Source of the DNA: Macrostomum lignano
Taxonomy: Eukaryota
Reading direction: 5' to 3'
DNA: 64,000 bases
NCBI GenBank assembly: GCA_002269645.1
Contig: NIVC01000924.1
Coordinates: forward strand, 1-64,000
This document shows, piece by piece, positions 1 through 10,773 of the stretch. The notes under the pieces are model-generated. The model was not told where the DNA came from. It searched no databases and saw nothing but the letters and a program-made list of their open reading frames with translations. Position 1 is the first letter of the stretch. Each line of letters begins with the position of its first letter. The position numbers and the translations under genes are program-made.

Positions 1-551
1 GGCATGAAGCAGCAGTACAAGGATAAAATGAAACTCTTGTACACCGACACAGACAGTTTTATTATGGACATTCAAACAGAAGACATTTATCAGGACATGC
101 TGCAGCAAAAAGATTTGTTTGACTTGTCTGAGTATGATGAATCTTGCAGGACACAGAATGGCGATCAAGTGTTTGACGCCACTAACAAGAAAGTGATTGG
201 GAAAATGAAGGACGAGATTGCTGTGACATAATCACTGAATTCATTGGGTTGAGAGCAAAGTCCTATTTTATAAAATGTGAGTCGTCAGACCCAATCAAAA
301 AATCAAAGGGAATTCCGAAACGTGTAGTTAGGAAGGAAATTAATGAAGCTGAATACAGAGACGCCTTGAATTGCAACAAAAATACATCACATGAGTTCTC
401 AAAGCTACAATCCAAAAACCATATTATTCACACAATTCGGCAAAAGAAGATTGGACTGTCAGGTGCAGATAACAAGAGATTCATTTTTGATGACAATATC
501 AACAGTCTACCGTTCGGGCATTGGAGGTTAGGTTTAGGAGGTTGGGTTTAG
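1..551 (+). CDS. Protein-primed family B DNA polymerase, C-terminal part, with 1-nt frameshift near 223
   Basis: Motifs LLYTDTDSF, KKVIGKMKDE, then in the other frame IITEFIGLRAKSY, KKSKGI and DNKRFIFDDNINSLPFGH; adding one base gives KDEIAGDIITEFIGLRAKSY. Confidence 0.93.
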
Positions 552-604
552 GAGGTGGAGGTTGGGTTTAGGTTTAAGAGAAAGTTTAATAAACCTCATA
601 AAAA

Positions 605-1006
605 ATGACGACAAATAACTTTCTTGAAGATTTGGCTAACGAACTGGAAATCCCAAACTTTAGAGGAATATTTATGAGGGACACTCTGCCTGATTTTCCT
701 CTAAGAAAAGAATGCGGCATCATGAACTTTGACACCACCGATAAGCCAGGATCTCATTGGGTTTGCTGGGTGATTGATCCCGATCGCAAGCACAAGTGTT
801 ATTACTTCGATAGCTATGGGACGGCAGTACCAGAAGAGCTAAGAAATTATATGAAGGGAAAAAATAATAAAAAAATTTATCGCTCAGACTTTATTCTCCA
901 AGGTCTTAGCAGTGATATTTGCGGTGAGCTGTGCATGACTGTTTTGTATGCAATGACCAAAACACGAAAGACCTACAAGGAAATTATTCGTACCTGTGTT
1001 TCATAG
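605..1006 (+). CDS. Adenain-like (adenovirus-type) cysteine maturation protease
   Basis: FRGIFMRDTLP, GSHWV (His), YFDSYG (Asp), LQ...DICGELC (Gln, Cys). Confidence 0.92.
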   Translation: MTTNNFLEDLANELEIPNFRGIFMRDTLPDFPLRKECGIMNFDTTDKPGSHWVCWVIDPDRKHKCYYFDSYGTAVPEELRNYMKGKNNKKIYRSDFILQGLSSDICGELCMTVLYAMTKTRKTYKEIIRTCVS

Positions 1007-1010
1007 GGGT

Positions 1011-1667
1011 TCATTGTGCATTTCTCGTTGTACTTCTCGTTGTCCTTCTTTCCACATAATGTTGAAGAACTTTCTCGAGTTCATTTCTCAGCTGACTCAT
1101 GTCATCAGTACCGACCATGTTCAAGTTCATTCGAATTGATTGTTCATAAAGATCCTGAATGGTTTTGAACTCATCCTCTGAAATGAACTTATCCTCGATT
1201 GCCCTTGAAATGTACCCTATGATTGATGTGTGCACCCCTTTCTCTTTTACTTGCTTCTCCTGTAGCTGCTTTAGTTTTTTTCGCCTGTTTCGCGCTAATG
1301 CTCCAGTAATTGCTGAAATAAGTCCACATGCAGCACCTACTGAACCAAGTGGAATTGCGATTGGGACTGTGATGGCTGGCAACACTGAGACAGCTGCAGC
1401 AGATCCAGATAGAACAGACACAGATCCTAGAATCATATTGCTGTAGTCGAAAAATTTACAGTGGTTGTCATAGCGCTTAATTTTCTTTGTGTTGTGGAAA
1501 ATATTTTTTTCAAGATCATCGCGCATTTTTTGAATCTCCACCAGTCGAAACTGTTGAGAGTTACAAGTAATGACGGGGTAGAGTTTTTGTTGCTCATATT
1601 GGGGTGCACTAGGTGCACTAGGTGTTGTGGGAGCATTCTGATCATAAAGAGAATTTTGAGCATCCAT
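1011..1667 (-). CDS. Conserved Polinton/adintovirus membrane protein (LYP-FRL family; possibly the gene annotated GasderminX in adintoviruses)
   Basis: LYP...FRLVEIQ N-terminus, central hydrophobic hairpin (ILGSVSVLSGSAAAVSVLPAITVPIAIPLGSVGAACGLISAITGAL), basic RRKK, then ISRAIEDKFISEDEF. Confidence 0.65.
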   Translation of the reverse strand: MDAQNSLYDQNAPTTPSAPSAPQYEQQKLYPVITCNSQQFRLVEIQKMRDDLEKNIFHNTKKIKRYDNHCKFFDYSNMILGSVSVLSGSAAAVSVLPAITVPIAIPLGSVGAACGLISAITGALARNRRKKLKQLQEKQVKEKGVHTSIIGYISRAIEDKFISEDEFKTIQDLYEQSIRMNLNMVGTDDMSQLRNELEKVLQHYVERRTTRSTTRNAQ

Positions 1668-1778
1668 TTTTTAAGGGAATTTTTAAAAAAAAATCGACAA
1701 CTAGTTAGTGGTGTTAGATTTGTTTTACGTTTGATTGTTTCGTCTGCAGTTGGCGCCAGCAGGTCTCTTCGAATCTAC

Positions 1779-7369: not shown

Positions 7370-7430
7370 GTCGTCTTCGGGCTTGTAAAAGTACGATATA
7401 AGCCGCCAGGTACATCCTTGTAGTTGGCTA

Positions 7431-7667
7431 CTACAACTGCCTTATAACTTCAGCAAGGTTATAATAGCTGTCAAAATCGTTAATGACTACTCCGTGTTTT
7501 TCAAACCAGTGTCTTTGGAGAGCTAGATTAATATTAGGGACATTGATATCAACGTCGGGCCAATATTTTCTCATGTACTCGCTGCATTCCTTCTTGCATC
7601 GGTACTTGCTCTTGAAATTAGGCTCATGCGCTTTGTAATAAGAACCTGGAGAGACAACTGGAAACAT
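7431..7667 (-). CDS. Orphan viral ORF (78 aa from ATG 7667)
   Basis: Non-repetitive ORF between penton and subterminal repeats with TAAAAATG start context like other element genes. Confidence 0.5.
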   Translation of the reverse strand: MFPVVSPGSYYKAHEPNFKSKYRCKKECSEYMRKYWPDVDINVPNINLALQRHWFEKHGVVINDFDSYYNLAEVIRQL

Positions 7668-7794
7668 TTTTAGAGAAAATTTAGATTTTTTCAAAGGGTA
7701 AGGACCCTGCGCTGATGATTTAAAGTCTTAGGGATCTGGTTTCACGTTGCGGATTGAATGTGGGGAGAAGAATGCAGATTATTTTCTGATTGTT

Positions 7795-8370
7795 TCGAAG
7801 ATGCTATGGGTGGATGTCAGTGGATTAAAATGGGATTATATTCGAAGTTTTCGGAACAAGTAGGACACCTGTTATGCTCTGATTCTGTCAGGGATAATAT
7901 GGATGGATTTAATGGGATTATGTTCGAAGTTTTCGGAGCAAGTGCGGCCCCTCCCCTTTTTCATGATTCTGTCAAGGATAATATGGATGGATTTAATGGG
8001 ATTATGGAGGACGTTTTGTGAGCGAGTGCGACCCCCCTTTTTTTCTGATTCTGTCGGGGATAATATGGATGGATTTAATGGGATTATGGACGATGTTTTG
8101 TGAGCAGGTGCGACCCCCCTTTTTTTCTGATTCTGTCAGGGATAATATGGATGGATTTAGGTGGATTATGGAGGAGGTGAAAAATTTTGTCCCAGAAGCC
8201 CCCTCATGCCTTCTACTAGGATGGAACCCAGATCGTGAATGGTGCCAAGATCAAAAGTGGCGCCAAGATCAAGAGTGACATCAAGATCAAGAAGCGCCAA
8301 GATCAGGAATGGCGCCAAGATCAGGAATGGCGCCAAGATCAGGAATGGCGCCAAGATCAAGAATGGCCTA
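7795..8370. repeat. Polinton subterminal repeats: about 82-bp units (7795-8165) and 18-bp units (8225-8370)
   Basis: GATTCTGTCAGGGATAATATGGATGGATTTAATGGGATTAT at about 7881, 7965, 8047 and 8129; ATGGCGCCAAGATCAGGA repeats. Confidence 0.85.
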
Positions 8371-10773
8371 GATGAATATACATATATAAGCAATCTGAAG
8401 TTCGTGGAGCTTCTCGCCCAAGACGACCCTTGGTTTCGATTCTTCTCGCGGCGCTATACTCGTACTACTAAGGCACTACAGAAAAAATCACCAAGGTGAT
8501 TTCCAGTATTTAGCGCCTCTTTTTTTGGCAAGGGCGAAATTTTTAGTGCTATTCTAATACTGCAATAAACTTTTTTTCTTTATGTTAGAGTTCGCCTACT
8601 GATAAGTAGAAAGTATAGAGTATGGCGCGCAGAAAGTTTGGGCCGGCAAAGCATATCGCCATGCGAGAGTGCAGCAGAGTATAAGTAGAATTTCTGTTCT
8701 GAAATGCCGAAACTGGACGTTGATGTCGCCAGGGCTGCTCCCCCGGCCTTTCTAACTGACGAGAGCGTCGAGACTGAAGGCCCTATACTAGAGAACAGTT
8801 ACATCGACGGTCCATCATCTGACGCACCCTGACCACTTGGTATTACTTTTGTGGGTTGCGTCTTTTGTCGTTGGTTGTTTATTTATCAGTTTTTTTGCAT
8901 GGAAATTGGCCACCCTAGAACTTATTTCAAACTATGATTCACGTCCATGAGGGCCAGCCTGCCAAGAATATGTATATTATACATGAGGGTTCACTATATA
9001 TATATATCACTATATATATGAGGTGTTACTGTGTACATCCTGATGTACAGCCGTACATATGCTGAACTAATAACCTACTAATTACTTCTTCAAGTTATAT
9101 TCATTTAGAAAAAGTATTGTAACTCGTAATCCAAGATTAACTAATCGTTAGAATATTCAAAATAATATGAGTAAGTTTAAGTTTGGTTCAATATTGAGGT
9201 CTGAAAGCAAATTGGGAGCTAATTTTAATAAATACGAGCGTACTTTCTTTGCGTAATGTGCTACTAAAAGTAGAGCAGCCAAAAGAAATTCGAATTATTT
9301 TTAAAAGGAATGACGTGAAGATTTAAGATAGAGCTTGTCTTCACCGATTGTATCTAATATATTTTAGCAATAAATTCGTTTCGAAATATTTTTCTTTTAA
9401 GATACGCGATTCTGCGACACACGACTTACAAATCTCTCTGGGGGATAGGAAAACAAAAATACGAAGTTCATTTTTTTGAAGAAACAAAAAGTTGGTGATC
9501 ATGAATCTTGAATTGTTGTAAAAATAGAATCATGCAGAGAATCATCAAAAGTGATATATTGAGTTGGTTGCATCATTTGCAATGAATGTTTTGCTTTAAA
9601 ATAAATGAAAAAAATAGATGAAAAAATTCGTAAAAGAAAAACAGATTATAATTCTCTTAACACTTGAATCATGTAGTTCGTAAAAAAACAAATGAGGAAC
9701 AAAACGTTAAGAATAATGTTTTACCGTCGATTTAACAGTTTAAAGAAAATAAGTTTCAGATTTTCAAAGCTTCGAATAAATAATTATAATAGTCAATATC
9801 TCATAAATATGCAGATGCTTAAATTTAGCTTCAAGATTTAAAACATCACCGAAGAAAAATGTTGCACATCTAAAACAAAAATGATTGAAATTCGAATTAC
9901 ATCTTATCAGATTTTTGAAAGTGTAGATTCATGAAAAAAATTTAAAAAATCCAGGCGCTTCATTTACTTTGATTTTAATAGAAATCTAAGAAAAGTTGTA
10001 AATCTTCATAGGATTTAAATTGACTGGCTGGTTTTAATAAGGATATAGTATACTTACTGCATATACAGGTACATGTCTTTAGCTTTCTTTATTGTTAAAC
10101 TTGTTGAAACAGATGTTTTCATAAAAAAATTTATATGATTTTGCAAAAAATTACGAGTAGCAAAAGCGAAAAAATATTTTTTGTTACAATAAAGTGATTA
10201 AACAACGTTTTGATAGCTTCTTCACAAATTGCATTACCATATGCAGCTAGTTCCTAGAAAAGCAGCACATTATTTACATGGCTGGTAGGTTCAATATTAC
10301 ATGCATCTAGCTAGCTAGTCTTTAAGTTTTATAATTTTTTATACACTCTCAATATATTTTCTTTGTTAATCTTTTCCATTAATCGCAAGCTGCCTATAGT
10401 TCTTCGAATTTGTGGTTGCACTGCTGCTGTCAAGTACATGTACATGTTTAAACTACACAGGCACTGATACCACTGGAGAGATTCTTCCCTGGTGCCTTTG
10501 ACCACCAGGACCCTTCGGGAACAGGTCAAGAACTAAACAGCAATTGGGGGAGCCGGTCATATCCAGGGGATTGAGATCAAGAAGGCACTAAACACTAAAC
10601 ACGGGTCAGTGGGACTCTGCAGGCAAAAAATGTGCATCCGTGCTCTTGCCTGTACATGTACTTGCTGTATACATGCATACGATGCTTGAACATTTCATCC
10701 ATATGATTGAATTTTTTGTCGGGGGAAATATAGTTCATTTTACCAAATCACCAGCTGACGTCTAATTTTGATT

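Follow-up and report, generated by a model that had tools for sequence, protein, structure and literature searches.

The window analysed here is a stretch of 64,000 nucleotides of Macrostomum lignano DNA (GenBank assembly GCA_002269645.1, contig NIVC01000924.1, positions 1 to 64,000 of the forward strand), of which the first 8.2 kb form the right-hand part of a young, integrase-inserted provirus of 16.8 kb belonging to the Polintons and adintoviruses. The window starts at base 1 of the contig (hereafter C924), which holds no sequence upstream of it. The earlier note on this DNA, made from the letters alone, had described an endogenous Polinton or adintovirus with a complete virion-morphogenesis module in ten packed, intronless open reading frames (ORFs), and these were found within 1-7667; the integrase and left terminal inverted repeat (TIR), which it had proposed to look for upstream, were both located on another contig, C96. 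The gene set is canonical for Polintons; the population structure of the family is unusual.

On the plus strand, the window opens with the 3' end of a protein-primed DNA polymerase B (pPolB) gene in two frames (1-551), with a break near 222-223 that is likely an assembly error, followed by a maturation protease of the adenain/Ulp1 type (605-1006; 133 amino acids (aa); Peptidase_C5, E 1.6e-4) with His, Asp, Gln and Cys motifs. Five ORFs then lie on the minus strand. The first (1011-1667; 218 aa), conserved in the family, has a hydrophobic hairpin and is possibly a membrane protein; it has only weak 2TM matches in Pfam, its look-alikes in the Atlas, recognised below threshold, are viral and molluscan hypothetical proteins, and its ratio of replacement to silent substitution rates (dN/dS) is 0.27-0.31. 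The second (1779-2510; 243 aa; dN/dS 0.29-0.53) is coiled-coil-like with an internal 84-bp duplication and no significant Pfam family, and a fibre-like role for it would be a guess. The third is the A32/FtsK-type genome-packaging ATPase, here as allele A (2527-3327; 266 aa; Pox_A32, E 3.5e-6), with Walker A and B and an RGRH motif, upstream of which a 21-bp tandem repeat (3363-3488) differs in unit number among copies. The fourth, a small ORF with Gly-rich protease-site-like motifs (3552-3899; frame break near 3610), is likely to encode a virion core or cement precursor, and the fifth, ORF415, is a Gln-rich frame of 415 aa adjoining the capsid gene, also as allele A (3917-5164; dN/dS 0.18-0.30), with no match in Pfam or the Atlas. 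The double-jelly-roll (DJR) capsid gene (5195-6490; PF21738, DJR-like_dom, E 5.3e-9) and the penton or minor capsid protein gene (6512-7369; 285 aa), both of type A, return to the plus strand, and a 78-aa ORF on the minus strand (7431-7667; dN/dS 0.28-0.53), open in 41 of 43 renderings, adjoins the right TIR.

The frames of the capsid, penton, ATPase and protease are open, as had been claimed, with lengths common to other copies, and their assignments are backed by Pfam or by fold, although eight of the 11 translated pieces of the window match no Pfam family at the cut-off. The capsid model, from 14 sequences, is mediocre (predicted local distance difference test, pLDDT, 52.6), but its best matches are all DJR capsids, namely those of PBCV-1 (best E 4.6e-10), Sputnik and mavirus. 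The penton ORF has no Pfam match; its model, from 72 sequences, is a confident one (pLDDT 92.8) and matches the mavirus penton (best E 1.2e-9), the Sputnik penton and adenovirus penton bases, and 120 relatives were found at E<=0.001. Two pieces of the polymerase approach PF03175 (E 6-7e-4, below the cut-off), with a weak EndoVII match, and its N-terminal pieces have no Pfam match; it has 914 long relatives at E<=1e-30, many of them with PF03175/PF02945, and its DTDS motif lies in window 1-231. In the left part of the insertion, on C96, lie a variable accessory ORF, a PLA2-like ORF (162 aa, E 8.1e-14), the integrase (a 345-aa open frame; rve, E 2.4e-8; D-D-E motifs), a pX-like ORF (154 aa; Adeno_PX, E 4.7e-7) and the polymerase. 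The PLA2-like and pX ORFs are separate, lie on different strands and flank the integrase; the former has the His-Asp pair, while its loop is without the second Gly of the parvovirus motif.

The right TIR (7669-8217; 549 bp, with 82-bp internal repeats) ends in CTACT and is followed by a 6-bp target-site duplication (8218-8223, plus strand). The left part of this insertion forms the end of contig C96, which overlaps window 1-4365 at 98.5%; the six nucleotides that follow window 8217 also stand directly before the left end, at C96:372998, and the element measures about 16.85 kb by coordinates. The two TIRs are 99.45% identical, and the outer 250 bases of the two ends show no differences, the nearest of 58 other ends being 4.0% away. 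The terminus had previously been placed at an ACTACT at 8464-8469. This is ruled out: similarity to other copies stops at 8217, and 8218-8469 is host sequence, with an 18-bp host minisatellite and flank at 8224-8469 that include the ACTACT and are found in two element-free loci, C95 and C2511 (the hexamer occurs 11 times on the plus strand of the window, against about 18 expected). Both loci are homologous to that of the insertion but have the target site once and nothing of the element, at a flank identity of 97.1-99.7% for C95 and 96% for C2511. The insertion is thus young and polymorphic between homologous loci, in agreement with the recent origin that had been proposed.

It is plausible that this copy is mobilisable. 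Its intactness is obscured by the assembly, in which renderings of the one insertion differ by about 2-6 indels per kb: those on C924, C96 and a third contig, C4346, have 8, 25 and 12 private indels in 4.4 kb. C4346, identical to the window over 2.7 kb of flank, was rejected as a rendering of the whole insertion, as it is a chimera that joins another copy's left end to the window's insertion, with a left flank that gives no duplication and a left cassette that differs from that on C96. This foreign left end is flanked by intron-poor frames of an M13 (neprilysin-like) peptidase with a HEIGH motif (L001:5-1204; family assigned by eye).

Two one-nucleotide indels had been named as the only lesions, and two frame breaks were indeed found, at 222-223 and 3610, but both are more likely assembly errors than decay. 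The polymerase frame is open across 222-223 in C4346 and C96 and in the contigs of four of four independent sequencing runs, at full depth, although such contigs drop rare variants and a private lesion may still be present; an indel at 3610 is shown by the contigs of all four runs, and the small ORF there, 115 aa in the window, measures 126 aa in C4346 and 123-131 aa in 23 of the 30 other copies measured. In 125.6 kb of polymerase from 33 copies, 254 gaps shift the frame; of the 211 gaps of one base, 199 are deletions and 45% lie in runs (21% background), against 12 stops among 2,931 substitutions. The short polymerase frames in the assembly are read here, tentatively, as assembly noise, which masks the number of intact copies. 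Co-option of the capsid genes by the host was considered in view of their fewer frameshifts (capsid and penton 0.3-0.5 per kb, polymerase 2.1 per kb), and was rejected since the gradient tracks distance from unique flank and the polymerase had one yardstick.

The earlier description took the element for a recent and possibly mobilisable virus of a likely undescribed lineage; its Polinton nature is borne out, while its end was misplaced and the large, recombining family to which it belongs was invisible from the window. The terminal 19-mer occurs 349 times in the assembly (reversed control, 0), giving about 175 end-pair equivalents, some of them duplicate renderings, and the genome holds well over a hundred distinct copies. 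The family makes up about 0.4% of the assembly, where it breaks contigs and produces chimeric joins. All of the 97 candidates scored, from 673 in a capsid search, were matches, 24 at 98-100% identity and most others at 83-84%. Both ends were paired for 41 copies, 22 through TIR or capsid matches and 19 hand-picked from the first 100 listed ends (capsid type A in two, type B in 16, none in one), and most are 15-17 kb long. Target duplications are perfect in 30 (15/22 and 15/19 in the two sets), match at five of six bases in four and are lacking in seven. In 30 copies tested, a copy's own two ends agree within 1.2% in 11 and within 4% in nine, and lie further apart in ten; between copies the median end divergence is 8.1%, and even the most similar pair from separate loci is 1.2% apart. 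With the window's insertion identical at its own two ends over 250 bases and the copies mutually distinct, these are young insertions from an already diverse pool and not the burst of one master copy.

Near the left end lies an accessory slot with 22 cassette groups in 39 copies; six accessory ORFs tested, from five copies plus C96, had no significant Pfam family. The cassette of C4346 (L001:1945-2625) encodes a RING finger protein (E 4.3e-8), other cassettes hold unrelated ORFs of 200-300 aa without Pfam matches, and the slot of the copy on C33 holds a nested piece of a retroelement of the tyrosine-recombinase type, recognised by eye. Two candidates for a third capsid type were rejected: on C70 a piece of an LTR-type integrase retroelement replaces the capsid gene (nested pieces of C70 and C33 at L072:4622-6079 and L099:6693-9570), and C819a, at first 70.7% identical, has the 80% DNA identity of the other copies of type B. 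Short derivatives of 3.6-11 kb (C105:570682-574517, C544:473028-476600, C276:289398-300645) keep both ends and the capsid end but have neither polymerase nor integrase; target duplications are perfect in two of them, and they may have been mobilised in trans.

Comparison of the copies with the window's insertion revealed a mosaic. Every copy matches it at 95-100% across the polymerase and protease, and second alleles exist for the ATPase (about 79% in DNA), ORF415 (66-78%, within an overall span of 66-100%), capsid (79%) and penton (75%). In 25 of the 30 duplication-perfect copies (those left out being one each of a duplicate, an ATPase-less, a mixed-ATPase and a capsid-less copy and a short derivative), seven of the eight possible haplotypes of ATPase, ORF415 and capsid plus penton are present. 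In this sample, in which capsid type A is overrepresented, Fisher tests gave p=1.0 for capsid with ATPase, p=0.24 for capsid with ORF415 and p=0.075 for ATPase with ORF415. When the copies are painted by allele, block edges are common to copies and fall at conserved patches. Capsid and penton alleles travel together in the 41 paired copies, which can be explained by low homology between them, and the capsid genes of three further copies, picked for their intermediate identity, are patchworks. Where one locus has duplicate renderings, these agree at 99.6-99.96% and reproduce the mosaic, although they may share reads. In a quick tree, capsid types A and B group together (support 100), apart from database relatives. 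As judged from these sequences, the capsid types reassort with ATPase and ORF415 alleles on a near-uniform polymerase backbone.

Selection was estimated from the open frames among 43 renderings (capsid 29, penton 31, ATPase 23, protease 22, integrase 19, pX 21, PLA2 15). For pairs with less than 5% silent difference, dN/dS is 0.17 for the capsid, 0.21 for the penton, 0.15 for the ATPase and 0.32 for the protease; it is 0.18-0.24 for the PLA2-like gene, and 0.07 and 0.05 between capsid types, at dS 1.4-2.3. A count by codon column gives 0.04-0.18 for shared and 0.17-0.42 for private variants, all below 1, though only marginally so for the private variants of penton A (p=0.051); silent and replacement changes among shared variants number 19:7 in capsid A and 32:8 in capsid B. 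Purifying selection thus acts on the capsid, penton, ATPase and protease, and does so even between copies that are nearly identical. Since such proteins act in trans among many copies, the constraint suggests that each source genome depends on its own capsid, an argument also made for vertebrate Mavericks (PMC8097293).

The nearest capsids in the databases are 76-77% identical, on contigs of 1.6-3.7 kb, with relatives at 72-77% in other public data sets, and the nearest polymerases are 44-45% identical. These distances agree with the suggestion of an undescribed lineage; in open-access text neither the family nor within-genome reassortment of capsid alleles was found described, although Repbase, Dfam or supplements may list the family. 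Published work does report module exchange between Polinton lineages (10.1101/2023.08.22.554363; 10.64898/2026.10.13.758929) and purifying selection on the capsids of vertebrate Mavericks (PMC8097293). The capsid region is present in 20 public runs from eight studies, of which 19 bear the label organism A and one the label organism B; runs that were guessed to be RNA extend over host flank too and count neither way for expression. In run X2, which bears the other organism label (examined over window 1-11200), capsid contigs are about 99% identical to type A, the host flank is almost uncovered (depth 0-0.31), and the depth of the type A capsid is near that of the polymerase, against about one fifth in three organism A runs. 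Contig depth is no copy number and this pattern is a lead only, the missing flank being equally explained by low single-copy coverage or a mislabelled run.

Taken together, the copies probably represent young insertions from a diverse, recombining, capsid-dependent pool that is likely still to replicate and spread as virus particles. The virions and the steps of such a cycle we infer from the biology of the group (PMC11071308, PMC8502044). A linear copy would leave the chromosome, and the protein-primed polymerase would replicate it starting at its ends; an icosahedral shell would be built from capsid and penton, and the ATPase would pack the DNA; the protease would trim pX and other core precursors; the PLA2-like protein would aid entry; and the integrase would insert the genome with a 6-bp duplication. 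Co-resident genomes may cross over at short conserved intergenic patches, likely before inserting, and so shuffle the three two-allele blocks (ATPase; ORF415; capsid plus penton) and the variable left-end accessory slot. Several points weigh against this interpretation. A polymerase frame of more than 1,200 codons is present in only one of 37 copies in the assembly, with the polymerase measured against a single yardstick copy. Seven of the 41 paired copies are without a duplication, and the chimeric C4346 demonstrates that the assembly switches between copies; ten of 30 copies have ends more than 4% apart and are older insertions or recombinants. The dN/dS values come from open frames only, from non-independent pairs and without a neutral control. 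Scans of IMG/VR and of JGI metagenome contigs found no relative, none of the 20 runs with the capsid region is recorded as RNA, and particle, episome and transcript were not observed in assembled contigs, the sole data. A bolder version, in which a live, horizontally transmitted DNA virus of an invertebrate keeps re-entering the germ line, two balanced capsid types reassort as adenovirus types do and a second host species has been reached, is put forward only tentatively; the hint of a second host comes from run X2, which is element-positive, nearly flank-free and rich in type A.

It is rather unlikely that the family is an active self-synthesising transposon whose capsid serves as a shuttle within one animal, inside cells or from cell to cell (soma to germ line), with no particles passing between hosts. 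Such a shuttle would account for selection on the capsid genes and fits both the polymorphic insertion and the lack of relatives in IMG/VR and JGI contigs, but capsid types saturated at silent sites (dS 1.4-2.3) on a backbone that is 95-99% uniform point to outside sources or long balanced maintenance, relatives at 72-77% occur in other public data sets, and the PLA2-like entry protein is kept under selection. Less probable again is a recently extinct invasion by diverse exogenous viruses, the copies being silent fossils that inherited their selection from the free virus. That the copies are individually distinct, that private variants are more weakly constrained than shared ones and that some copies have decayed (the capsid of C70 replaced by a retroelement; derivatives of 3.6-11 kb) agrees with this; however, even the private variants remain below neutrality, the two ends agree within 1.2% in 11 of 30 copies, and the window's insertion is missing from a homologous locus with flanks 97-99.7% identical. 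That the mosaic is an artefact of long-read contigs that switch, where sequence is shared, from one to another of two or three families that do not recombine is very improbable, for despite the chimeric join in C4346, the seven of 41 paired copies lacking a duplication and the high indel noise, a switch would exit through the wrong flank, yet all 25 tested copies have matching duplications, 11 of 30 also have private, matching TIRs, and same-locus duplicates, even if from common reads, reproduce the mosaic.

The family offers an approach to a long-standing open question, that of particle formation by animal Polintons, for which particles have rarely if ever been demonstrated. Published work states that Polinton particles have not been observed (PMC8097293) or offers expression only (PMC11131425), and natural particles and episomes may well be sought in a host with more than 100 young, polymorphic copies in which selection acts on the genes for capsid, penton and packaging. 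The two-allele blocks are built-in markers with which one could ask which capsid packages which genome, whether the types exclude each other and what keeps two capsid types in an antibody-free animal.

The assembly also holds a second, unrelated Polinton-like family (G000 C2696:31000-44000, L114 and L115; C67:358600-365300, L116 and L117; at least 25 other places), with a DJR capsid of 454-463 aa, a different gene order in which integrase, capsid and ATPase genes adjoin, and many near-identical copies; it shares only weak ATPase similarity with the window's element. The host genes of the window lie among many minisatellites (10700-12030 on the minus strand, 32857-33420, 35514-36919, 46300-50950 and 57490-58611) and include, by eye, a Thr/Ala-repeat membrane protein, a small heat-shock-like ORF, a PDZ protein and a choline-transporter-like gene, as well as a Srw-type G protein-coupled receptor whose relatives reach only 30% identity.

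With respect to known systems, the insertion has the rve integrase, DJR capsid, penton, packaging ATPase and Ulp1/adenain protease of the Polintons or Mavericks (Polintoviricetes), together with a protein-primed polymerase recognised by its 914 relatives and DTDS motif, PF03175 being below the cut-off. Polintons are also marked by long TIRs that end in AG...CT and by target duplications of 6 bp; here the TIRs measure 549 bp at 99.45% identity, with the duplication on both sides, and 30 of 41 paired copies have it in perfect form. Polinton-like viruses (Aquintoviricetes) are not known to have the combination of pPolB, rve and protease, all three of which are present. The N-terminus of the Polinton polymerase carries terminal-protein and vOTU domains (PMC11071308). 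The likeness to adintoviruses (Starrett et al. 2021, PMC8502044) extends from pPolB, rve, adenain, FtsK/A32 ATPase, DJR capsid and penton to PLA2-like and pX-like genes, TIRs, a length of 15-17 kb and an animal host; however, PLA2 and pX are separate here and not fused as PLA2X. The same source defines an Alpha class by a pfam03175-type PolB and fused PLA2X and a Beta class by a divergent PolB with GasderminX and cupiennin-like genes. Read thus, from gene content, the weak PF03175 match (E 6e-4) and divergent PolB may point to the Beta class, whereas PLA2 is described for the virion modules of the Alpha class, from which the sub-threshold PF03175 and the separate PLA2 and pX ORFs depart; Pfam scans of the window, C96 and accessory ORFs gave no gasdermin match.

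Vertebrate Mavericks (Barreat and Katzourakis 2021, PMC8097293) likewise have target duplications and selected core genes that were read as evidence of virions, but at a median of eight copies per genome with at most 38 intact, cases of 170-290 copies being defective; here there are about 175 equivalents, many of them young, with within-genome selection and reassorting capsid alleles. Module exchange and an HNH-type nuclease in the polymerase are shared with nematode Polintons (Jeong et al., 10.1101/2023.08.22.554363) and Polisuviricotina (Barth et al., 10.64898/2026.10.13.758929), where swaps are described between lineages, over long times and mainly of the replicase. In the present family, by contrast, the polymerase is uniform and structural alleles segregate in one assembly. 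Human adenovirus types shuffle hexon, penton and fibre, and the family resembles them in that diverged capsid alleles recombine on a conserved backbone. It differs from them in having an integrase, in being endogenous and in its much smaller gene set, and as the host is without antibodies the driver of this exchange must also differ from that in adenovirus.

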